A stretch of 64,000 nt of DNA. Source: Spirochaetia bacterium (GTDB lineage Bacteria > Spirochaetota > Spirochaetia > SZUA-6 > Bin103). The stretch is from assembly GCA_965198005.1 (NCBI GenBank), contig CBDAOI010000004.1:1664001-1728000 (forward strand), written 5' to 3'. The notes beneath the pieces were generated by a model. It ran no database searches. It was not told the origin of the DNA and saw only the letters and a list, made by a program, of their open reading frames with translations. Within the stretch, counting starts at the first letter, position 1. Every line of letters begins with the position of its first letter. This document shows positions 2,492 to 14,198 of this stretch, in pieces. Both the position numbers and the translations under genes were made by a program.

Positions 2492-2860
2492 AGCTCGGAC
2501 TCTACGAGTCGTGGGGCTTTCGGGAGGTGTGGGTGGAGGTGCCGGACGAGCCTGCGCCGAGCCGGCCGGCTGTGCTTGGTCCCGGTCTGACGATCTACGT
2601 GTCGGGGCGGGCGGGGCTGCGTCCGGCGCCGGCGAGCTGAATCGGGTGGGGCGTTTGCTGGGTGCTGCGGAGGGCACGGGGCCGGATAGCGATCCGTTCT
2701 TGCGGAGCCAGCGCCGCGAGAGCCACGCCGCGGGATGGGTAGGGGGGCATGCCGAAGGCCGGGCGGAGGCCCAGCGTGCGAGTGCGCTACAGGTGCTCGA
2801 GACCCGTGGCGTTGCCGTATCGGCTTCCCTGGCGGCGCGGTTGGCAGAGATGGACACGCA
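2491..2860 (+). pseudogene. Second fragment of the Uma2-like hypothetical gene
   Basis: aagctcggactctacgagtcgtggggc...gtgccggacgagcctgcgccgagccggcc matches 1562-1650. Confidence 0.45.
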
Positions 2861-3029
2861 CCACACCTCTCACCTTGACCCTGCGTCGGAATGCGCCGGA
2901 AAAGGTGCTTGACGCCTTGCTGTCTCCCGAGACGGCGAGCCCGCCCTCAGCCGTCCGCCACGTCGAACGCCGTCACGTTGCGCGTCTCGCGGCTGAACAC
3001 TGGTACGGAATGCTCGCGAAGAAGGCGTG

Positions 3030-3134
3030 AAACAGCTCCTTCAGGCCCGCGCAGTCGTGCGCCTCCAGCTTGCGGAAGGTCTGCATGCCGATGGGCAGTC
3101 TGCGACGGGCCACACCTCATCTTACCCCGTCGCC
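3030..3134 (-). pseudogene. N-terminal shard (plus upstream bases) of an AAA-ATPase gene paralogous to 1-1136
   Basis: gcggaaggtctgcatgccgatgggcagtctgcg...ggccac.cctcatcttaccccgtcgcc nearly identical to 1095-1157. Confidence 0.8.
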
Positions 3135-3291
3135 GGTCGAGTGGCCGCCGCCGGCGCAGCCTGATCGCGGGTGCTACGCCGGGCGTAAGCTTGTCGACGG
3201 GGTGTCGGAGTGTCGGGGTGCTGATCGATCTGCCGGGTGACTTCAAGAAACTTCGGCAGTTGGGCCGTTTCGTGGTTTGACTCCCACGGGA

Positions 3292-3485
3292 GCCGAGGTT
3301 ATTATATGGTGGGATGCAGTCAATCGTGACTACATCTGGGTATAGCTGTGCCTCACCTGCGGAGGGCTTGAGTGACTTATAACACGTCAACGCTTATGAC
3401 ACTCTGTTCCCCTGACAGCCGCTCGCCGAGAATTGCTGAAAATCAGCTCGCGGCGGGCTTGCTTAATGGTGAGGAGTCCCCCCCC
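3292..3485 (+). repeat. ~190-bp conserved non-coding element, copy A (copy B inverted at 54127-54330)
   Basis: Near-identical reverse complement of 54127-54330. Contains hairpin gctcgccg...gctga-aaa-tcagc...cggcgggc and ends in a C8(AC)5 tract. Confidence 0.9.
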
Positions 3486-3853
3486 ACACACACACTTTTC
3501 GTACAACAGAGCAACCGAGAACAACTAACCGCTCCGGCTGATCGCTCCGTGCGCGTCCCCGCGCACGCCGTCGCCTTCACCACGACGCCTGCGCCCACGG
3601 CGGCAGCCAGCCGTGGCGCCGGCTCGTGCGATCGCCGACCGAGCCAGCGCAGCGACGTCGTCACCTTCACAGCCCGCCACCGCCCGGCGCCGGCCTTGCC
3701 GACCACTCGGACTCGCTGCCTCGCCGACCGACACAGGCGTGGGGTGCCACGCCTGTCCACGCATACAAGGAGGCACGGGATGACACCCAAGACGGGATAC
3801 GACTAACGCCCCAAGACCGCCGCGCGGGGCGGACACGGAACGACCGAGGGTGT

Positions 3854-3908
3854 CGCCCTTGCTTTCGAGAGTAGGCGAGGGGTCGGCAGTGGAATCGGTA
3901 CTCTCAGA
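3854..3908 (+). promoter_or_regulatory. Conserved leader hairpin just upstream of the SBP ribosome-binding site (candidate cis-regulatory RNA)
   Basis: Stem gagagta/tactctc enclosing ggcgaggggtcggcagtggaatcgg; homolog at 15627-15708 with a compensatory base pair. Confidence 0.55.
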
Positions 3909-3932
3909 ATCAACAATTCGAGGAGATTCTCA

Positions 3933-5717
3933 ATGAGTAATCTGTTCAAAACATGCGTCGCCGTAGTGTTCGGTCTCGTGCTGATCGCCATCGGCGTCGG
4001 GGCAAGCCCGGCCGGGGAAGAGGAGCCGGCCGCGGCGATGGAGAAGGAGATGGTGCTCGACCCCACCACCGGCAAGATGGTGTCGGCGCCGGAGTATGGC
4101 GGCACATTCACCTGGGGCGATGCCACCGGGGCTCCGCACTGTGACCCTCACATCCATGGCTGGGGGCCACGGGCCATCGACGGCGTTGCAGAGAGGCTAG
4201 GCATCAGGGACTGGGCAGCAGATAGGAACGAAATCAGCTTTTCAGACTCTTATACTCCTCTCCGTTTCGTGAGAGGGGCGCTGGCGGAAAGCTGGGAGAT
4301 GATCGACTCACTGACGTATGTCTACCACATCCGCAAGGGCGTTCGCTGGCACGACAAAGCGCCGATGAATGGTCGGGAGTTCACTGCCCAGGATGTCGTA
4401 TACAACTTTCACCGTTATACGGGTTCGGGCAGCGGCTTCACCGAACCTAGCGCCGCTGCTGGCACACTCGCTTCGATACCACTCGAATCGATAACCGCCA
4501 GCGACGATTCGACGGTTGTCTTCAAGCTGACGCAGCCAAAGGTAGACTTGCTGGATGTCCTTGCCATCGACTGGAGTGCCGCTATGTTACCCCCAGAGGT
4601 AATCGAGCAATACGGCGACCTGACGGACTGCGACAACATGGTCGGTACCGGGCCCTATATGCTGACAGAATGGGTCGATAACACGTCTATGACGTATTCC
4701 AAGAATCCTGACTACTGGGGCTTTGACGAAAAATATCCGGAGAACCGCTTGCCCTACATCGACCAGATAAACCGGCTAATCATGCCGGAAAAGGAAACAC
4801 AGCTGGCGGCGCTACGCTCGGGTAGGCTCGATTACATCGGTCAGTCCGGCGGGGGTCAGTTACAAGTGGCCCAGGTGGAGAACCTACAGCGGACCAACCC
4901 CGAAATCGTTTTATACCCGTGGGCCTTTCGGTCGGAGACCTCTGTTGCATTCAACCTGCGCCACCCGTCGCCCTTTCAAGACATCAGGGTTCGCAAGGCG
5001 ATGCAGATGGCCATTGATCTGGAGACCATCAACAATACTTACTTTCGTGGCTTTGCAATGACGAAACCCCAAGGAATCATAGGAGACGGTCTGAAGGGGT
5101 ACTACATCCCATTCGAAGAGTGGCCCGAAGAGACCAGGAAAGTCTTTGCGTATGACCCGGAAGGGGCCGAAGCGTTGCTTGATGAGGCTGGGTATCCGCG
5201 CGGTGCGGATGGCATTCGATTCAAGACCGTCCTGAACCCCGTGCCCTCGTGGGATGTGGGTTATCAAGAAATAGCCGCTGAATACTGGGCTGCGATTGGC
5301 GTTGACGTAGAGGTTAAGATAACTGAAGTCGCTCAACTGATGGCGCTGGTAACTGAAGGTACTTATGAAGGGATGGCCTATATGGATATCGGCAATGACG
5401 GCTCGATTCAATGGCTGATGAGTGTTCTTCAAATCGGAGCGCAATGGGGCCGCACAGGACATCAGGACCCGGTGATGGACGCCAAGGCAAAAGCCGCTAT
5501 GGCCGCTACCAGGCTCGAGGAGCAGCAGCGGCTGGTGGCGGAGGCAGATATGTACTCGATCCAGCAGCATTGGTTCATATGGGGTCCTAAAGTTCCCCAA
5601 TTTGAGGCGGTGCAGCCGTGGGTGATAGGTTTTAACGGTGAAATCTGGTATACTACACATGCGCCTTTCGAGCGCCTGTGGATCGATAGTGCGCTGAAGA
5701 GCGAAATGGGTTTCTGA
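3933..5717 (+). CDS. ABC transporter substrate-binding protein, family 5 (DppA/OppA-like)
   Basis: Signal peptide, PEYGGT, LAESWE, GTGPY, KNPDYW, DIRVRKAMQMAID, YDPEGAEALLDEAGY; RBS aggag. Confidence 0.95.
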   Translation: MSNLFKTCVAVVFGLVLIAIGVGASPAGEEEPAAAMEKEMVLDPTTGKMVSAPEYGGTFTWGDATGAPHCDPHIHGWGPRAIDGVAERLGIRDWAADRNEISFSDSYTPLRFVRGALAESWEMIDSLTYVYHIRKGVRWHDKAPMNGREFTAQDVVYNFHRYTGSGSGFTEPSAAAGTLASIPLESITASDDSTVVFKLTQPKVDLLDVLAIDWSAAMLPPEVIEQYGDLTDCDNMVGTGPYMLTEWVDNTSMTYSKNPDYWGFDEKYPENRLPYIDQINRLIMPEKETQLAALRSGRLDYIGQSGGGQLQVAQVENLQRTNPEIVLYPWAFRSETSVAFNLRHPSPFQDIRVRKAMQMAIDLETINNTYFRGFAMTKPQGIIGDGLKGYYIPFEEWPEETRKVFAYDPEGAEALLDEAGYPRGADGIRFKTVLNPVPSWDVGYQEIAAEYWAAIGVDVEVKITEVAQLMALVTEGTYEGMAYMDIGNDGSIQWLMSVLQIGAQWGRTGHQDPVMDAKAKAAMAATRLEEQQRLVAEADMYSIQQHWFIWGPKVPQFEAVQPWVIGFNGEIWYTTHAPFERLWIDSALKSEMGF

Positions 5718-6868: not shown

Positions 6869-7733
6869 TAGGGGGCGCAGTTTCTTTGTCAGGCTGTGGC
6901 GGGAACGGCCGGTGGGTGCTGTCGGCGGCATCATCGTACTGATCTTGATTCTGGTCAGTATCTTGGCCGATTTCCTTGCGCCTTATCGCCCGCGGGAGGT
7001 GAACCTGCCAGACATCTTGCAAGGTCCGTCGGCCACTCATCTCCTGGGTGCCGACCACCTGGGGCGAGACGTCCTGAGCCGCCTCATTCACGGGGCGCGC
7101 ATCTCGATATTCGTCGGGTTTGCCGCGACCACCCTCAACGTTGTCGTGGCCGGGCTGATCGGCGGCACGTCGGGCTTCCTGGGCGGCAAGCTGGACCTGG
7201 TGGTGCAGCGCTTCGTCGATGCCTGGATGTCGTTCCCGGGACTACTGCTGCTGTTGACGGTCATGTCGATAACGGGGCGGGGGATTCTACAGCTCATCGT
7301 GGTGCTGGGCATCGTCGGCGGCATCCCCGCCTCACGCGTGGTGCGAGGGGCTGTGCTCGGGGTCAAGGAGAATACCTACTTTCAAGCCGCGGAGGTGATC
7401 GGCTGCTCGACAGGGAAGACGCTGGTTCGCCACGTGCTGCCCAACATCGCGGCTCCGATAATCGTCATCTTCAGCATCAACATCGGGGCGGTGATCATCA
7501 CCGAGGCGTCTCTGAGCTTCCTCGGTTTCGGTCTGCCGCTCCGGATTCCCAGTTGGGGCGGCATGCTCAGTCGGGAAGGGCGCCAGTACATGGAGATGGC
7601 GCCGCGGCTGGCTCTGTGGCCCGGCCTCTGCCTGACGATCGTCGTCTACAGTCTGAACATGTTCGGCGACGCGGTGCGCGACCTGCTCGACCCGCGGCTG
7701 CGCGGTGGTACCGGTCGTTACGGCGGCAGGTAA
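6861..7733 (+). CDS. ABC transporter permease, DppC/OppC-like
   Basis: HLLGADHLGRDVLSRLIHGAR...RHVLPN...EASLSFLGFG...GDAVRDLLDPRLR. Confidence 0.95.
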   Translation: MNDRGRSFFVRLWRERPVGAVGGIIVLILILVSILADFLAPYRPREVNLPDILQGPSATHLLGADHLGRDVLSRLIHGARISIFVGFAATTLNVVVAGLIGGTSGFLGGKLDLVVQRFVDAWMSFPGLLLLLTVMSITGRGILQLIVVLGIVGGIPASRVVRGAVLGVKENTYFQAAEVIGCSTGKTLVRHVLPNIAAPIIVIFSINIGAVIITEASLSFLGFGLPLRIPSWGGMLSREGRQYMEMAPRLALWPGLCLTIVVYSLNMFGDAVRDLLDPRLRGGTGRYGGR

Positions 7734-7789
7734 GGTGACAGGTAAGCTGACAGGTAAGCAGGAGGAGAGTTGCTCGATCGTGCGGAGGA

Positions 7790-8962
7790 CTAGTGCGCCT
7801 TGGGCGGGTGGCGGGCGAGGGCGGCCTCGTCCGGCTCGGTGCCCCAGCCCGGGGTGTCGGGCAGGTGCAGGTGGCCCTGGCGGATGTCCGGCGCCACGGT
7901 GAACAACTGGTCGTCCCACGGTCCCCGGTCGACGTCGGTCTCCATGATGCGCAGGTTGGGCACCGCCGCGCACAAGTGGGCGCTCATCATCGTCGCCAAG
8001 TGTCCGTAGTAGTTGTGCGGGGCGACGTTGATCTGGTGGGCGTCGGCGATCGCCGCGATCTTCATTGATTGCCAGACGCCGTTCCAGACCGCGTCGATGA
8101 TCGCCACGTCCATCGCCTGCAGCCGGAAGTAGGGGAGGAACGCGGTCGGGGTGATCAGCGACTCGCACGAGCTGATGGTATGCGGGCTGCCGCGCCGCAC
8201 GTCGGCCAGCGCTTCCGGGTGCGGGGTGTCGATCTCGAACCAGAAGACGTCCAGATCGGCCAGCGCCCGCAGGATCCGCAGGTACCCCTCCGGTTTCGCG
8301 TTGTAGTTGAGGTCCACCAGGATGTCCAGGTCGGGCCCGGCGCCGTCGCGAAACGCCTCCAGATGGGCGCGGAGCTGGCGGATGACGTGCCGCTCCACGT
8401 TCTGGTCGGGTTGAAACGGGTGGCCGAATCCCGGTGCCCAGCCGGTCACCGTCTCCCCGCGGTAGTCGAAGATGTTGGTCTTGAGCGCGGTGAAGCCCGA
8501 TTCCCGTACCTCGGCGCCGAGCGCCCGGATGCCGTCCAGGCCGGTCACCGTGGTGCGGTGCAGGCCGGGATGGGCGATGCGCCAAGTGCCGCAGTGCGAC
8601 CAGTACACGCGGATCCGGTCGCGTATCTTGCCGCCGAGCAGCTCGCAGCACGGCACGCCGAGCAGCTTGGCCTTGGCGTCGAGCAGGGCGTTCTCGAGCG
8701 CCCCGATTCCCATCGCCATCACGCCCGACATCGACTGGCGCGCCCGCGCCTGCAACTTGGCGAACACCCGTTCCGTGTCCTGCACGCGCTCGCCGGCCAC
8801 GAACGGGGTCAGCCGCTGCACCACGCTGGTGACGCCGGCGGCGCCCTGATGCTCGTCGTACTCGCTCCAGCCGACGAGGCCGTCCTCGGTGGTGAGCTTG
8901 ACGAAGTGATAGTTGCGCCAGCCGGCGTCGCAGTGGCGCGTCTCGATGCTGCGGACCTTCAT
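7790..8962 (-). CDS. Mandelate racemase/muconate lactonizing (enolase superfamily; galactonate dehydratase-like) protein
   Basis: MKVRSIET...VKLTTEDGLVGWSE...LLDAKAKLLGVP..ELLGG...GFTALKT...APHN...LPDTPGWG. Confidence 0.9.
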   Translation of the reverse strand: MKVRSIETRHCDAGWRNYHFVKLTTEDGLVGWSEYDEHQGAAGVTSVVQRLTPFVAGERVQDTERVFAKLQARARQSMSGVMAMGIGALENALLDAKAKLLGVPCCELLGGKIRDRIRVYWSHCGTWRIAHPGLHRTTVTGLDGIRALGAEVRESGFTALKTNIFDYRGETVTGWAPGFGHPFQPDQNVERHVIRQLRAHLEAFRDGAGPDLDILVDLNYNAKPEGYLRILRALADLDVFWFEIDTPHPEALADVRRGSPHTISSCESLITPTAFLPYFRLQAMDVAIIDAVWNGVWQSMKIAAIADAHQINVAPHNYYGHLATMMSAHLCAAVPNLRIMETDVDRGPWDDQLFTVAPDIRQGHLHLPDTPGWGTEPDEAALARHPPKAH

Positions 8963-9059
8963 GCCGCAGAACGCCGCTTCGCTGTGGTTTGCATGACCAG
9001 ACAGTACGTGGTCAGAATAGGGTGTGGCAAGCGCGCACCGACCGCCGCGACCGACGGGA

Positions 9060-10385: not shown

Positions 10386-10589
10386 CTGGCGGACGATTGT
10401 CGATCAGGCGCGGGGCCCGTAAGATCGGCGCGACTACAGGCCGCCTGCGGAGCCGCGTCTCAGCTTGGCGCACCACTCGCCGGACCGGTTCGACCTTGCC
10501 GAGCGCCGCCGCAACGCCATGGCGTACGTCAACGAAATCGGCCGGCGCGCCGCCGACGGCCGCATCGCCTGCGCCTTGGACGCGTCGCC

Positions 10590-10780
10590 GCCGACGGCAG
10601 CGAGTACGTGCCCGGCTTCACGGTGTCGGCGGTGGTCGACACCACGGGCGCCAGCGACGCCTTCGACGCCGCGCTGGCCGTCGGGCCGGCCGAGGGCCGC
10701 CCCCTCCCCAAGGCCGCCCGTTTCGCCAACGCCGTAGCGGTGCTATGCTGCACCGCGCTCGCTACCCTGCCGGCCCTACC
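10590..10780 (+). pseudogene. C-terminal fragment of a PfkB/ribokinase gene
   Basis: VPGFTVSAVVDTTGASDAFDAALAVG..EGRPL..AARFANAVA (degenerate DTTGAGDAF motif). Confidence 0.7.
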
Positions 10781-11000
10781 GTCGGCGGGCGGAGGTGGAC
10801 GCATTCGCAGCATCCGGAGCCGGTGTTGCCTGATTGCGCTACAATAGGTGGTTCCCAATCGCGCGTTACGACGATAAGATGTGTATTGGCATGTACCTGA
10901 GTTACGTGGCACCGGATGGCGGGCTGTGCACGCATGCTGCTTCTTGCGTATCCCACGGAATCCTCGCTATACCGCGAATTGAGACTGACGGAGAACCTGA

Positions 11001-11870
11001 TTGACTTTCCATTTGCAAGCCATTTGTAGCGGTCGCTCGGGATTCGAGCGGCTTAGCCAACTCGCCAAGTCGACCGAGCATCTTTTCGCCGACCATCTTG
11101 AACTCAACATTTCGCAAGTAAGCTCGTTCGACGGCAACATGGCCGCTCCGCTGGGAGTTGTACTGGCGCATGTTACGGATGACTTCAACTTTGTTGAGAT
11201 TGTTGCCATCCCCTCAGGTATCAAGCGAGTACTCCGAAAGAACCGATTTCTTACGCACTTTCGCTATAGTCCGATGGATGACATTCATGGTACTACGATG
11301 CCCTATCGTCGCCTTCGACTGACTGATGAAGGAGCATTCGAGGACTACATCCAACTGCAACTCAAAGATAAGGCCATTCCCGAGATGTCCGCAAAAGCGA
11401 GCCAAAGATTCAAGCAGAAGGTATTTGAAGTATACCAAAATGCTGTTTCTCACTCGGAATCTGACGTTGGCGTGTTCGTTTGCGGCCACATGTTCCCGCG
11501 CGAAAATCGTCTCGACTTTACCATCGCTGATGGCGGTATGGGTATTCGTGATGCTGTGCGTGGTTACTTCAAAACTGATAGAATCAGTTCGATTGCAGCA
11601 CTAAAATGGGCTCTGGAGCAGAATCACACCACAAAACGTGGTAGTCATCCTGGTGGCCTTGGTCTTGGGTTTCTTCGAGCATTTTCCGCTCTGAACGAAG
11701 GAAAGATTCGGATTGTCTCGCGGTTCGCGTTTTATGAATTTGACTGTGGACAAGAAGCATTCCACAAAATGCAGTATGACTTCCCCGGAACCGCCGTAAC
11801 GGTTCAGATCAACACTGCCGATACAGGGAAGTATATTCTACCCGCAGAGATCACTACGGAGGAACCATGA
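11001..11870 (+). CDS. GHKL/histidine-kinase-like ATPase (anti-sigma-factor kinase-like) with N-terminal extension
   Basis: N-box EVYQNAVSHS, G1 FTIADGGMGI, G2 GGLGL, G3 PGTAV; no H-box or TM segments; lower GC than flanks. Confidence 0.85.
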   Translation: MTFHLQAICSGRSGFERLSQLAKSTEHLFADHLELNISQVSSFDGNMAAPLGVVLAHVTDDFNFVEIVAIPSGIKRVLRKNRFLTHFRYSPMDDIHGTTMPYRRLRLTDEGAFEDYIQLQLKDKAIPEMSAKASQRFKQKVFEVYQNAVSHSESDVGVFVCGHMFPRENRLDFTIADGGMGIRDAVRGYFKTDRISSIAALKWALEQNHTTKRGSHPGGLGLGFLRAFSALNEGKIRIVSRFAFYEFDCGQEAFHKMQYDFPGTAVTVQINTADTGKYILPAEITTEEP

Positions 11871-12235
11871 CCGAACCGATTCTCGTGCGAGTGTACGACA
11901 TCGTAGGGGGCCCGCTCGGCGTGTCAACCGAGGATGGTCAGCGCTTGCATGACAAGATTGCGCCACTCCTCAAGGCCGGTACGCCGGTCGTTCTTTCATT
12001 CGAACGCATCGAGACGATGATATCGGCATTTCTCAACGCAGCCGTTGGGCAACTCTACGGTGAGTTGTCTGAAGATAGTGTCGATCACCTGCTGTCTGTC
12101 AGCGATATGGCTCTCGACGATAGCCACGTGTACCAACACGTTGTCACGAACGCGAAGGCTTACTTCAAAGACCCTGGCAAGTTTGAAAGGGCATGGAGAG
12201 AAGAATTGGGCTCCGAAATGGATGATGAAGAATAA
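11867..12235 (+). CDS. STAS-like domain protein (DUF4325-type)
   Basis: 122 aa; VSTEDGQRLHDKI...VVLSFERIETMISAFLNAAVGQL; ATGA overlap with the upstream ATPase. Confidence 0.8.
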   Translation: MTEPILVRVYDIVGGPLGVSTEDGQRLHDKIAPLLKAGTPVVLSFERIETMISAFLNAAVGQLYGELSEDSVDHLLSVSDMALDDSHVYQHVVTNAKAYFKDPGKFERAWREELGSEMDDEE

Positions 12236-12776
12236 AGCACACAACTTGTCTGGGTATTCATTCCAAAGGGGCGAGTCGTTGCTGTTCGACACTAACGTGT
12301 GGCTCTATCTCTATCCCGCACCGGCGGCGAGCGTCTATCGGCATGCAGCAAGGTACAGCAGCGGGTTAAAATCAATGCTTCAGGCAGGCGCGCAGATGGT
12401 TGTCGACGCAGTCGTGCTTAGTGAGTACTTGAATCGTTATTGTCGTATCGAGTGGAGCGCAAACCATAGGGCAATGTATCGAGACTTCAAGGCATTCCGT
12501 ATGTCAGCTGATTTCGCGCCGGCTGGGCAAGCAGCGGCTGCCTATGCAAATCAGATACTAAAGCTTGGCAAGCGTTACGATCACCCGTTTTCGCTAATCG
12601 ATCTCATGCGAATACTGACCGATTTCGAATCTGGATTGTGCGATTTCAACGATGGTTTGCTAGTGGAGACCTGCCGCCATCATGGATGGAAAATCGTGAC
12701 GAACGATTCTGATTTTGTCTCTGGGGGTATCGAAGTCTTGACCACGAACCCCAAGCTCTTGAAAGCGTGTCCATAG
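12222..12776 (+). CDS. PIN-domain ribonuclease
   Basis: LLFDTNVWL, VLSEYLN, DFNDGLL, IVTNDSDF give the complete acidic PIN active-site pattern; start overlaps the STAS gene end. Confidence 0.85.
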   Translation: MMKNKAHNLSGYSFQRGESLLFDTNVWLYLYPAPAASVYRHAARYSSGLKSMLQAGAQMVVDAVVLSEYLNRYCRIEWSANHRAMYRDFKAFRMSADFAPAGQAAAAYANQILKLGKRYDHPFSLIDLMRILTDFESGLCDFNDGLLVETCRHHGWKIVTNDSDFVSGGIEVLTTNPKLLKACP

Positions 12777-12897: not shown

Positions 12898-14112
12898 TCA
12901 GTCGGTGGGCAACGCCGCGCCGTACAGAAAGTCGACCAGGTTGATATGCCGAATGCCGTCGAGGGGTCCCGGCGCGACGGGGTCCAGCGAGAGCATCACC
13001 TTGGCGTGGGCGTCGCCGGTGCCGAGCAGGGCGGACTTCTCCCGCTCGAGTGTCTCCGGGGACTCGATCAGATAACTCACCTGCACGTACACGCGGCCCT
13101 GCGCGCCTTCGGCGACGAAGTCGACCTCGTGGGCGCCGGCAACCCCCACCGCGACCCGGTAACCCCGGCGCAGCAACTCGTGGAACACCAGATTCTCCAG
13201 GTCGCCGGCAATCCACCGTTCCTGCGTGCCCAGCAACCCATGACGCAGGCCGAGGTCGCCCAGGTAGTACTTGCTGCCGATCTGCAGATGGCGCCTGCCG
13301 CGCAGGTCGAACCGGTCGACTTTGTCCAGCACGAACGCTTCGCACAGATACGAGAGGTAGTTGAGGACCGTATCGGCCGTGCCGCGTCGCTGATGGGACC
13401 GCATGAAGTCGGAGATTCTCTTGCCCGACGTGAGATTGCCGACGTTGTCCATCGCGAAGCGGACGATCGACTCGAACGTGTCCGGATCGCGAATGGATCG
13501 CCGCTGCACGACGTCCCGCAGCGCGATCGTGCTGTAGACGTCGCCCAGCATCTGCCGCACGAGGTCCGGAGAAAGGTCGGTGTGGAGCAGCCCCGGCAGG
13601 CCGCCCAACGTTCGGTAGCGCGCGAACAGCTCGGCTCTCGACGGCTTCCCCGGTTGGGTCGCCGCGAAGAGGTCCGCGAACTCGCGCAGCGAAAGCGGCA
13701 GCACGCGAAGCGTGAGGTAGCGCCCGGCAAGCCGCGTGGCCAGCTCCCCGGCGAGCAGCGTCGAGTTCGAGCCGGAGACCACGACGCGGGTCTCGTTGCG
13801 GTTCTGGAGCGAGGCCACCGCACGTTCCCAGTCGTCAATCTGTTGGATCTCGTCGACGATGACACAGGTCGGGCCGCCGGCCCCCTCCCGCCGTACATGG
13901 GCCACGAGATCTCCCGCTCCGCGGATGAATTCGAAGGAGAGATCCTCCATGTCGACGTACACGACGCGGGTTCGACTACGCAGACGCGCGGCGAGTTGGC
14001 GCAGGAGCACGCTCTTGCCGACGCGCCGAAGGCCGACCACCGCTACGGCCACCGGCGCCTCTACGTACCGCGCCAGTTTGTCCAGGTAGAGAGCACGTTC
14101 GATCTCGAACAT
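12898..14112 (-). CDS. ATP-binding protein, AAA_14 + DUF4143 family
   Basis: GLRRVGKS, VDEIQ, SGSNS, LAGRY, GGLPG, KYYLGDLGLR, LENLVFHELLRRG, EVDFVA. Confidence 0.92.
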   Translation of the reverse strand: MFEIERALYLDKLARYVEAPVAVAVVGLRRVGKSVLLRQLAARLRSRTRVVYVDMEDLSFEFIRGAGDLVAHVRREGAGGPTCVIVDEIQQIDDWERAVASLQNRNETRVVVSGSNSTLLAGELATRLAGRYLTLRVLPLSLREFADLFAATQPGKPSRAELFARYRTLGGLPGLLHTDLSPDLVRQMLGDVYSTIALRDVVQRRSIRDPDTFESIVRFAMDNVGNLTSGKRISDFMRSHQRRGTADTVLNYLSYLCEAFVLDKVDRFDLRGRRHLQIGSKYYLGDLGLRHGLLGTQERWIAGDLENLVFHELLRRGYRVAVGVAGAHEVDFVAEGAQGRVYVQVSYLIESPETLEREKSALLGTGDAHAKVMLSLDPVAPGPLDGIRHINLVDFLYGAALPTD

Positions 14113-14198
14113 GTTCCAATTATAGGGCGCGCGGCATAGGCGCGGCACGCGGTGGCCGTCGGATTGCCGCACGCGGCCGGGAACGGATAGAGTGAGGC

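Follow-up and report, generated by a model that had tools for sequence, protein, structure and literature searches.

A further intact vapKSC operon, a probable kinase-gated toxin-antitoxin module, in an uncultured high-GC spirochaete lineage

RESULTS

Layout of the operon

Three overlapping genes, designated here vapK, vapS and vapC, lie on the forward strand between positions 11001 and 12776 of the window, the 64,000-nucleotide stretch of Spirochaetia DNA that was analysed. The operon and its immediate surroundings comprise the following features:

10584..10784, + strand: truncated pfkB-family sugar-kinase gene, of which only codons ~238-304 are left; given as context
10785..11000, + strand: 5' leader of the operon, with edges that match the last pfkB codons
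11001..11870, + strand: vapK, 289 aa, TTG start; STAS + GHKL kinase-like protein, soluble, without HTH and without H-box
11867..12235, + strand: vapS, 122-aa STAS-like (DUF4325) putative antitoxin with Ser53 as predicted phospho-acceptor and with an acidic C-terminal helix and tail
12222..12776, + strand: vapC, 184-aa PIN-domain nuclease, predicted toxin; ATG at 12222
12898..14172, - strand: AAA_14 + DUF4143 ATPase gene, convergent, of normal host GC and outside the operon; matches PADLOC candidate PDC-S01

The overlap is 4 nt between vapK and vapS (11867-11870) and 14 nt between vapS and vapC (12222-12235); an overlap of similar size between the latter two genes is kept in most of 39 related loci, which were found in GTDB genomes with the VapK family. 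The TTG start of vapK aligns with Met1 of the homologues. The third open reading frame had been listed as 12045-12776, and its start was set from relatives at the ATG-ATG at 12222, giving a protein of 184 residues. None of the three reading frames is interrupted or shortened, and every catalytic or acceptor residue that is invariant in the families has been kept.

The GC content of the triad is 0.506 versus 0.619 in the remaining window (51% versus 62%), with local values of 0.48-0.52 across the triad segment and 0.65-0.74 in its flanks. Reading frames and base composition agree with the original prediction, which had described three overlapping, intact genes on a low-GC insert. No tRNA and no meaningful flanking repeats were found at the low-GC segment, which leaves no basis for suggesting a mechanism of integration.

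VapS and VapC are homologous to crystallised Escherichia proteins

The 122-residue product of vapS matches only DUF4325 (E 3.5e-14) and STAS_2 among the Pfam families, with no match to a DNA-binding domain. When the PDB was searched, chain A of entry 9z7o, 'Escherichia VapS', was found with E 2.1e-9 by the single sequence and 3.1e-21 by the family profile, the latter having no other credible match. Ser53 of VapS sits in the motif MISAFLN, and this position is occupied by Ser in 27 and by Thr in 4 of 31 sequences. It aligns with residue 66 of the 9z7o_A chain; this residue corresponds to native S48, provided that the chain's 18 additional residues are an N-terminal tag. The C-terminal part of VapS contains a conserved segment, Y99-F...(F/L)(D/E)xAW.EE, followed by an acidic tail.

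VapC contains a PIN domain (Pfam, E 4e-8). Chain C of the same PDB entry, 'Escherichia VapC', was matched over its full length by the single sequence (E 0.0034) and was the sole match of the family profile (1.2e-13). The PIN acidic residues D23, E68, D144 and D162 are invariant in 29 VapC sequences, D62 and D164 are conserved in at least 90%, and D23 aligns with D28 of Escherichia VapC. The NCBIfam VapC models stayed under their cut-offs for this protein (23.2 bits versus 73.6); neither VapS nor VapC is represented among the PADLOC 2.0.0 models. The earlier description of the second and third proteins, a 122-residue STAS-like protein with Ser in MISAFLN and a PIN domain with its acidic residues, was borne out by these searches.

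VapK combines a STAS-like domain with a GHKL kinase-like domain

The Pfam HATPase_c match of the window VapK (E 5.2e-4, 20.9 bits) lies under the 26.4-bit cut-off, and the same family matches 29 of 30 VapK family members. The GHKL motifs are conserved in the family: the N-box (E143/N147), D177xGxG181 and P217-GGLGL. The AlphaFold2 model of VapK (pLDDT 88.8, pTM 0.90) has a beta-alpha STAS-like domain from residue 2, and Foldseek searches with the model led to GHKL folds, namely histidine-kinase CA domains, topoisomerase VI-B, GyrB and Hsp90. These matches were generic for GHKL, none being specific to SpoIIAB or RsbW. A Pfam search detected no HisKA/H-box domain. The first ~110 residues appear to form the STAS-like domain, as judged from STAS_2 matches in 9 of the 30 members and from the beta-alpha pattern of the model. 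The original prediction was right about the GHKL fold, which is supported by family profile, motifs and model, and about the missing H-box, but it had overlooked this N-terminal domain.

Conserved aromatic residues of the N-terminal domain are F43 and F62 (close set of homologues), F83 (at least 95% of 36 sequences) and F113 (invariant in 30). In Escherichia VapK a conserved aromatic residue of the STAS domain, F54, has been proposed to stack on ssDNA (PMC13373217). The VapK-like family comprises 792 clusters at 50% identity (E up to 1e-30).

PDB sequence searches with VapK, by single sequence and by profile, returned chance-level matches only, with no VapK or CapK chain among them, and NCBIfam gave only sub-threshold matches to the operon proteins. 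PADLOC matched VapK to DISARM DrmA (E 4.3e-9). This assignment was rejected: the match is local, pairing residues 139-273 with positions 142-273 of a 1750-position model, and the 289-residue protein has no helicase domain in Pfam.

Relatives of the triad

The three genes, proposed originally to work as one unit, proved to be conserved as such in a neighbourhood survey: the order vapK-vapS-vapC is the same in all 39 related loci, which come from many phyla. The triad is also present on a Deinococcus plasmid (annotated ATP-binding / STAS-like / PIN), in the Streptococcus prophage Javan172 and on one IMG/VR contig; relatives are few in plasmid and phage collections (2 and 3 records) and in IMG/VR (1 record). 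Several relatives are visibly broken (L010, L022, L023, L028, L032, L036 and the G003 copy).

Hma helicase or methylase genes adjoin the cassette in 29 of the 39 relatives, and in this setting the reading frame of the upstream gene often reaches right up to vapK. The window copy has no Hma neighbours; a separate Hma system lies ~380 kb away in the same genome.

Upstream and downstream neighbourhood

The pfkB remnant upstream of the operon consists of 67 codons and carries a frameshift; tblastn of the PfkB protein of related locus L007 against the window gave 69% identity over 67 aa. In two genomes of the same genus, G009 and G010, DNA matches directly upstream of vapK showed that an intact pfkB abuts vapK. 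Three species of the genus have the operon at one and the same place in the chromosome, downstream of pfkB, which suggests long residence and not a recent mobile acquisition. Beyond pfkB and vapKSC the flanks are not syntenic with the same-genus genomes, and therefore no empty site could be reconstructed.

Frame translations and comparison of the junction with L007 and L019 identified the edges of the leader as the last pfkB codons. Between them lie ~170 nt of 54-58% GC, to which blastn-short found nothing similar in the fetched loci or in the rest of the window. Scanning for promoters and terminators gave results no better than chance, including two sigma-70 sites in the scanned region, and no promoter-like site was detected upstream of vapK with the sigma-70 consensus, which may not suit the host. 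The destruction of pfkB where the pfkB of relatives abuts vapK, together with the lack of a convincing promoter, weighs against the reading proposed below and makes expression of this copy uncertain.

The downstream AAA_14/DUF4143 gene is near-full-length in its family matches (AAA_14 3e-28, DUF4143 3.3e-15, PADLOC PDC-S01 1.5e-120). The surroundings had been described as an otherwise decaying region; this is only partly true, as it fits the upstream pfkB remnant but not the downstream neighbour.

DISCUSSION

Identity of the locus and proposed mechanism

The genes, their integrity, the conservation of the triad and the homology to VapS and VapC are established here. Membership of the VapKSC group follows from the homology of VapS and VapC, and the window VapK is provisionally placed in it by its domains, motifs, gene order and predicted fold. 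By analogy with the characterised system we consider it about 80% probable that the locus is a vapKSC operon, that is, a three-component module in which a kinase gates a toxin-antitoxin pair and which acts against phages.

The system was named, and its Escherichia sp. E4736 copy characterised, by Chambers, Rani, Min, Villa and Corbett (EMBO J 2026;45:5079, PMC13373217), who reported 289 operons and the crystal structure of VapS2VapC2 (9z7o). Escherichia VapC is toxic and is neutralised by VapS; the D28A mutant is non-toxic, and the S48E replacement in VapS breaks VapC binding (PMC13373217). The operon conferred ~2 logs of protection against phage Bas42, which was lost in the D28A, S48A and F54A mutants (PMC13373217). 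That paper reports no direct demonstration of VapS phosphorylation by VapK, which was insoluble, nor of VapK activation by ssDNA (PMC13373217). The similarity of the window operon to the Escherichia system is distant. The locus adds one more intact vapKSC, from an uncultured high-GC lineage, and its sequence is remote from that of the only copy characterised.

For the window copy, toxicity, neutralisation, phosphorylation, the ssDNA trigger and defence are predicted from homology. VapC would be a toxic nuclease like its counterpart from Escherichia sp. E4736. VapS would bind it through its STAS domain, probably in a 2:2 complex, and keep it inactive, with Ser53 buried in the VapC interface and the C-terminal helix of VapS near the active site. 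Single-stranded DNA arising from DNA damage or phage infection would probably switch on VapK (STAS+GHKL), which would phosphorylate Ser53; phosphorylated VapS would then release VapC, leading to cleavage of RNA and growth arrest.

This is essentially the scheme that the original prediction had put forward, in which a PIN RNase is set free once a GHKL kinase has phosphorylated the Ser of a STAS protein, with phage defence as a possible role. The scheme agrees with the model published for vapKSC, to whose VapS and VapC the window proteins are homologous, but the system is not new. The suggestion that the architecture was novel fails, because the triad maps to the already named vapKSC (PMC13373217), and PIN-DUF4325 coupling was listed in 2017 (PMC5499597).

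Complex prediction supported binding between VapK and VapS. The pair scored 0.66, versus 0.00 for the best control, with contact agreement of at least 96% between runs and partner pLDDT of at least 82; a score this high was seen in 58 of 80 solved complexes and in 2 of 110 mismatched pairs. The modelled interface is STAS-to-STAS: residues 30, 56-65, 86-88, 104-108 of the VapK STAS domain, and residue 155, would contact residues 3-30 and 47 of VapS. The contacts named by the prediction include neither Ser53 nor the ATP site, and the model does not represent a catalytic pose.

Alternative explanations

The operon could belong to the same family without being a dedicated phage defence in its host, where it would act as a general toxin-antitoxin module responsive to DNA damage or stress that arrests growth or stabilises the locus. 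To the authors of the vapKSC study the boundary between stress response and immunity is fuzzy, and in their account VapKSC answers a global signal (PMC13373217); moreover, the window copy is not part of a defence island, its one candidate defence neighbour being PDC-S01, and the shared site downstream of pfkB in three species suggests long residence. We nevertheless consider this explanation unlikely, given the Hma defence genes next to most of the relatives, the success of the 'embedded' position as a predictor of working defences (7 of 9 tested cases; bioRxiv 10.1101/2024.01.29.577857), and the protection against phage Bas42 by the Escherichia homologue (PMC13373217). It is quite improbable that the copy is a silent or decaying orphan, which lost its upstream transcription and translational coupling, and with them expression and function, when pfkB was truncated. 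The reduction of pfkB to 67 codons with a frameshift, the ~170 nt of unmatched sequence before vapK, the promoter scan and the visibly broken state of some relatives would fit such a fate. Against it stand the three open, full-length frames with every family-invariant catalytic or acceptor residue retained, and a PIN toxin gene free of its partners would be counter-selected. The argument from the promoter scan is weakened by a sigma-70 consensus that may not fit the organism.

Other explanations concern the mechanism. VapK might control VapS by STAS-STAS binding without phosphorylation, ATP binding or hydrolysis driving the sequestration of VapS from VapC in a genuine partner switch that leaves no covalent mark. 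The sole confident modelled interface does join the VapK STAS domain to strand 1 of VapS and its neighbours, away from the ATP site, and direct demonstration of VapS phosphorylation is not reported for any VapKSC in PMC13373217. The residues left unnamed in the complex model are uncertain rather than excluded as contacts, however, and the presence of Ser or Thr at VapS position 53 is absolute (31/31). In the homologue S48A abolishes defence and S48E abolishes VapC binding (PMC13373217), and in the sister pair CapK/CapS the equivalent Ser is phosphorylated in an ssDNA- and ATP-dependent manner (PMC13373217), which makes a switch by binding alone very improbable. A classical RsbW/RsbV or SpoIIAB/SpoIIAA module controlling a sigma factor, with the PIN gene as an unrelated neighbour, would account for a GHKL kinase-like protein next to a STAS protein with Ser at a SpoIIAA-like position, and NCBIfam gave a weak match to anti-sigma F factor (spIIAB; E 0.011, 15.7 bits versus a cut-off of 135). 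This explanation is effectively refuted: Pfam detected no sigma-factor gene in the operon, the PIN gene directly follows vapS in every one of the 39 loci, usually overlapping it, and homologues of VapS and VapC co-crystallise (9z7o).

Significance

The assignment of the locus to vapKSC as a probable kinase-gated anti-phage module is of confirmatory and comparative value and adds little that is new. It shows that the defining residues (Ser/Thr53, the PIN acidic set and the GHKL motifs) hold across many phyla, and the mechanism read from the raw sequence matches one that was published only in 2026. With three quarters of the branch lying beside Hma genes, 'guilt by embedding' speaks independently for a role in defence. 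The branch or its embedding may already be listed in the datasets of PMC13373217 or of the Hma preprint. The proximity to Hma yields a testable hypothesis of layered immunity. In the environmental branch vapKSC might not be a free-standing toxin-antitoxin module but a dedicated second line inside Hma (SNF2 helicase / DUF1156 methylase) systems: the kinase would read ssDNA produced by the action of Hma on invading DNA, and PIN-mediated arrest would follow if the first line fails. The window copy would then be an orphan that has departed from this setting, working alone or with the Hma system ~380 kb away. VapK might also bind VapS through its own STAS domain, in a previously undescribed STAS-STAS contact. 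Taken as a whole, this extended reading is tentative and, in our view, rather doubtful.

Comparison with known systems

In the SpoIIAB/SpoIIAA and RsbW/RsbV systems the substrate of the GHKL-type Ser kinase is a STAS protein of one domain, and phosphorylation changes the bound partner. The predicted acceptor Ser of VapS is likewise at the start of helix 2 of a STAS domain (cf. PMC13373217). The two arrangements differ in that here the STAS protein would hold the toxin, whereas there the kinase holds the sigma factor; in addition, the window kinase has a STAS domain of its own, and there is no PP2C phosphatase gene in the operon.

CapK/CapS, which regulates immune operons, shares with the window operon the pairing of a STAS+GHKL kinase with a STAS substrate bearing a conserved Ser, and activation of CapK by ssDNA and phosphorylation were demonstrated in vitro (PMC13373217). 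An HTH lies at the N terminus of CapK and a winged HTH at the C terminus of CapS, and the output of this repressor pair is de-repression of transcription (PMC13373217). The locus was not identified as CapK/CapS, since the window VapK begins with the STAS domain, the 122-residue VapS gave no DNA-binding domain match and the predicted output is a nuclease.

VapBC type II toxin-antitoxin systems resemble the operon in their PIN VapC-like nuclease, the small neutralising protein encoded just upstream and the overlapping genes. Here the putative antitoxin is a STAS (DUF4325) protein and not a DNA-binding VapB, and a third gene, for the kinase, would control release; Escherichia VapS is reported to leave the active-site Mg2+ of VapC in place (PMC13373217). 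Identification as VapBC was rejected, the upstream protein being DUF4325/STAS and the NCBIfam VapC models remaining below cut-off.

PIN-DUF4325 gene coupling appears under the PIN subgroup 'PIN.4' in Table 1 of Matelska et al. (NAR 2017; PMC5499597). Compared by gene pairing alone, this entry resembles the window vapS-vapC pair; it is a bioinformatic listing, whose description contains neither a kinase partner nor a mechanism (PMC5499597).

Relatives of the window operon fill the slot between the Hma helicase and methylase genes, as the HEC cassettes do (Payne et al., bioRxiv 10.1101/2024.01.29.577857); the window copy, unlike them, lies outside Hma. A PIN effector is found in HEC-03 as well, but its partner is an ABC ATPase and not a GHKL kinase with a STAS protein. 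The terms 'STAS', 'DUF4325' and 'HATPase' are absent from the main text of that preprint. The PIN systems DS-3 and DS-5 of DefensePredictor were set aside as having other architectures.

The closest comparison is with VapKSC of E4736. The window branch is distant from it, comes from uncultured high-GC and other environmental lineages and is mostly Hma-embedded, the window copy itself lying downstream of the broken pfkB. VapS and VapC are nevertheless homologous in the two systems and retain the Ser/Thr acceptor and the PIN acidic residues, respectively.

Genes of the triad and their base composition

The triad consists of three genes:

11001-11870, + strand: vapK, ORF, 289 aa, TTG start
11867-12235, + strand: vapS, ORF, 122 aa
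12222-12776, + strand: vapC, 184 aa, ATG-ATG start at 12222 as in relatives, frame open from 12045

The overlaps are 4 nt (vapK/vapS) and 14 nt (vapS/vapC). GC content is 0.48-0.52 over the triad genes and 0.65-0.74 in both flanks; the values are 0.506 for the whole triad and 0.619 for the remainder of the window, confirming the original prediction of three overlapping genes on a low-GC insert. A search of the low-GC segment for tRNA genes and flanking repeats revealed no tRNA and no meaningful repeats, and a promoter scan found no credible sigma-70-type promoter for the operon.

VapS and VapC match the Escherichia proteins

The vapKSC system of Escherichia sp. E4736 (Chambers, Rani, Min, Villa and Corbett, EMBO J 2026, PMC13373217; preprint February 2026) consists of VapK, a CapK-like STAS+GHKL kinase, VapS, a STAS protein whose C-terminal region is short, and a VapC-like PIN protein. 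The crystal structure of VapS2VapC2 was solved at 3.4 Å. VapC is toxic and its D28A mutant is not; neutralisation by VapS requires the VapS C-terminal region, and the S48E replacement in VapS abolishes both VapC binding and neutralisation. The operon protected against phage Bas42 by about 2 logs, an effect abolished by VapC D28A, VapS S48A or VapK F54A (PMC13373217).

In Pfam the window VapS matched DUF4325 ("STAS-like domain", E 3.5e-14) and VapC matched PIN (E 4e-8). As a single sequence searched against the PDB set, VapS had 9z7o_A, "Escherichia VapS", as its sole match (E 2.1e-9; 3.1e-21 with a 31-member profile). The top PDB match of VapC was 9z7o_C, "Escherichia VapC", with a full-length alignment (E 0.0034), and with a 29-member profile it was the sole match (E 1.2e-13).

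Ser53 of the window VapS, in the motif MISAFLN, pairs with chain residue 66 of 9z7o_A. That chain has 134 residues and the published VapS numbering ends at 116; if an N-terminal tag accounts for the 18 extra residues, residue 66 would correspond to Ser48 of native VapS, the acceptor named in PMC13373217. Of 31 relatives, 27 have Ser and 4 have Thr at position 53, which fits the "absolutely conserved serine or threonine" described for VapS (PMC13373217). In VapC, Asp23 aligns with Asp28 of the Escherichia protein, and the 29 relatives compared all have D23, E68, D144 and D162. The predicted 122-aa STAS-like protein with its Ser in MISAFLN and the predicted PIN domain with its acidic residues were both borne out.

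VapK is a soluble STAS+GHKL protein

VapK matched Pfam HATPase_c weakly (E 5.2e-4, under the curated cut-off). In a collection of 5.8 billion proteins 211 of 937 candidates were relatives at E<=0.001; the best 120 of the 211 are 53-85% identical and nearly all 280-300 aa long. HATPase_c was found in 29 and STAS_2 in 9 members of a 30-member alignment, and the N-box (E143, N147), D177xGxG and P217-GGLGL motifs are invariant or almost so across the family. In the AlphaFold2 model (pLDDT 88.8, pTM 0.90) a beta-alpha domain occupies the N-terminus up to about residue 105, and an alpha/beta sandwich comes after it. Foldseek gave 58 matches at E<=0.001 for VapK; the sandwich has the GHKL fold, shared with histidine-kinase catalytic domains, topoisomerase VI-B, GyrB and Hsp90. 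Relatives, motifs, model and Foldseek matches make the weak HATPase_c match solid. VapK is a soluble STAS+GHKL protein lacking HisKA and an H-box; the original prediction was right about the GHKL part but overlooked the built-in STAS domain. No VapK or CapK chain was among the matches of VapK to PDB sequences.

Assignment and proposed mode of action

The VapS and VapC matches to 9z7o, together with the conserved Ser/Thr53 and acidic residues, assign the locus to vapKSC; judged from its sequences, it is a vapKSC operon that belongs to a distant branch. Its VapK is placed in the VapK family by its domain architecture and its operon context.

By homology, VapS would keep VapC inactive until VapK, switched on by ssDNA arising from damage or infection, phosphorylated Ser53; VapS would then come off VapC, whose RNA cleavage would lead to growth arrest. 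This succession of hold, phosphorylation, release and cleavage is the most likely working of the window copy, and the PIN RNase released by a kinase-phosphorylated STAS protein, as originally predicted, matches the published model (PMC13373217). In that work rRNA or tRNA was suggested as the VapC target. Kinase activity and activation by ssDNA were demonstrated in vitro for CapK/CapS, from which the corresponding properties of VapK were deduced because VapK was insoluble (PMC13373217).

Complex prediction for VapK and VapS gave a score of 0.66, against 0.00 for the best control; solved complexes attained this level in 58 of 80 cases and mismatched pairs in 2 of 110. Contact agreement between runs was at least 96%, with a partner pLDDT of at least 82. 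On the VapK side the confident contacts lay in the STAS domain (30, 56-65, 86-88 and 104-108, plus 155), on the VapS side in its N-terminal part (3-30, 47); neither VapS Ser53 nor the VapK ATP site was among them. The model therefore supports binding, not the catalytic AlphaFold 3 pose reported in PMC13373217, and the contact between STAS domain and STAS protein may be either a docking mode or a model artefact.

Conservation and distribution

A scan for the kinase family in one genome per GTDB species yielded 39 loci, whose titles include Rhodothermales, Gammaproteobacteria, Latescibacterota, Gemmatimonadota, Spirochaetia, Acidobacteriota, Planctomycetales, Elusimicrobia, Nitrospirae, delta-proteobacteria, Verrucomicrobiota and Methylomonas. 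In each of the 39 loci, tblastn located a match to every window protein of the triad, in one order and on one strand, so the neighbourhood survey proposed with the original prediction upheld conservation of the triad across genomes. The PIN match was partial in four loci (L010, L022, L023 and L025, the last at a contig end). ORF reconstruction revealed broken genes in L010, L022, L023, L028, L032 and L036, and did not find a start codon for the L030 kinase. The vapS/vapC overlap, 10-14 nt, recurs across most of the 39 loci. Triad GC was below flank GC in 27 of the 28 loci measured (median difference -0.07).

The VapK profile matched 5254 proteins at E<=0.001 among 1.84 billion cluster representatives (2221 at 1e-10, 792 at 1e-30); the VapK-like kinase family is therefore large. 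The triad also occurs in one IMG/VR contig and on Deinococcus gobiensis plasmid P5, where it is annotated as ATP-binding, STAS-like domain-containing and PIN domain-containing protein.

Streptococcus phage Javan172 (MK448860.1) carries a kinase-STAS-PIN triad at 2857-4682 in its prophage lysogeny module, flanked by repressor region and integrase; its PIN frame is open for 176 codons, where the record annotates just a 39-aa ORF. In a similar position, the Francisella phage KIRK paper tabulates a DUF4325 protein after a 293-aa hypothetical protein.

Genomic setting of the window copy

Two neighbouring features flank the operon:

10582-10806: 3' part of a pfkB-family sugar-kinase gene, GC-rich, 225 bp
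12898-14172, - strand: AAA_14 + DUF4143 ATPase, PADLOC candidate PDC-S01 (E 1.5e-120, nearly end to end)

The ATPase gene is convergent with vapC, 121 nt apart, and has host-level GC. L007 and L019, two same-genus loci, have a complete pfkB of 317 codons whose stop overlaps the vapK TTG start; their triad-flank GC differences are -0.21 and -0.19, respectively. The window retains just pfkB codons ~238-304 (67 codons), followed by a frameshift; before the terminal pfkB codons and the vapK start comes an insert of ~170 nt (54-58% GC; within 10582-11000), for which no match was found elsewhere.

Among ten other genomes of the genus that were searched, the triad was present in three: G009 and G010, with the same pfkB stretch directly 5' of vapK, and G003, at another site. 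It was not found with the window query in the remaining seven (76-98% complete). Since G009 and G010 carry pfkB-site copies, the operon has long occupied this site in some genomes of the genus, and has retained its low GC nonetheless.

The G003 locus (C5:2380000-2394000, 7420-9034) represents a second, more distant vapKSC type (VapK 36% identity). It is probably decaying, because VapS is split over two frames and the PIN gene is shortened.

Most relatives lie beside Hma genes

The nearest long ORFs of the 39 loci were scanned in two sets. Upstream, 18 of 38 matched PADLOC HmaA (SNF2 helicase with NOV_C domain; best E = 0), often ending at the vapK start or a few bases off; downstream, 12 of 34 matched HmaB (DUF1156 adenine methylase). 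The ±5-kb flanks were then surveyed by tblastn with one HmaA and one HmaB query.

Hma genes within ±5 kb of the 39 loci
HmaA and HmaB: 20/39
HmaA alone: 4/39
HmaB alone: 5/39
Neither: 10/39

Typically vapKSC lies between HmaA and HmaB on the same strand, as in L014 (1435-5001 and 6786-9614). Other neighbours of the relatives include type I R-M subunits, GmrSD, PtuA, AriA/Old-like ATPases and IS66/IS200 transposases. tblastn over the 64-kb window found neither HmaA nor HmaB.

The window's own genome has a full Hma system at C4:2055323-2069643, ~380 kb downstream of vapKSC, with ~8 kb between HmaA and HmaB that include a type II methyltransferase, an RmrA/CapP-like protein, a Drt8 reverse transcriptase and three ORFs without PADLOC match. 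Two more HmaA/HmaB-like gene pairs lie at C2:889152-900098 and C4:1198531-1208981.

Comparison with known systems

Hma systems carry "embedded" defence cassettes, of which 7 of 9 tested lowered plaquing (Payne et al., bioRxiv 10.1101/2024.01.29.577857). The combination of vapKSC and Hma is absent from the main texts of that study and of PMC13373217. In IMG, 289 vapKSC operons were counted, 36% of them within 10 kb of a PADLOC-recognised gene (PMC13373217). The originally supposed novelty of the architecture did not hold, the triad being the already named vapKSC (PMC13373217). The window locus is a divergent new copy of this known system, and its significance comes mainly from the breadth of the family and the Hma embedding of its vapKSC branch.
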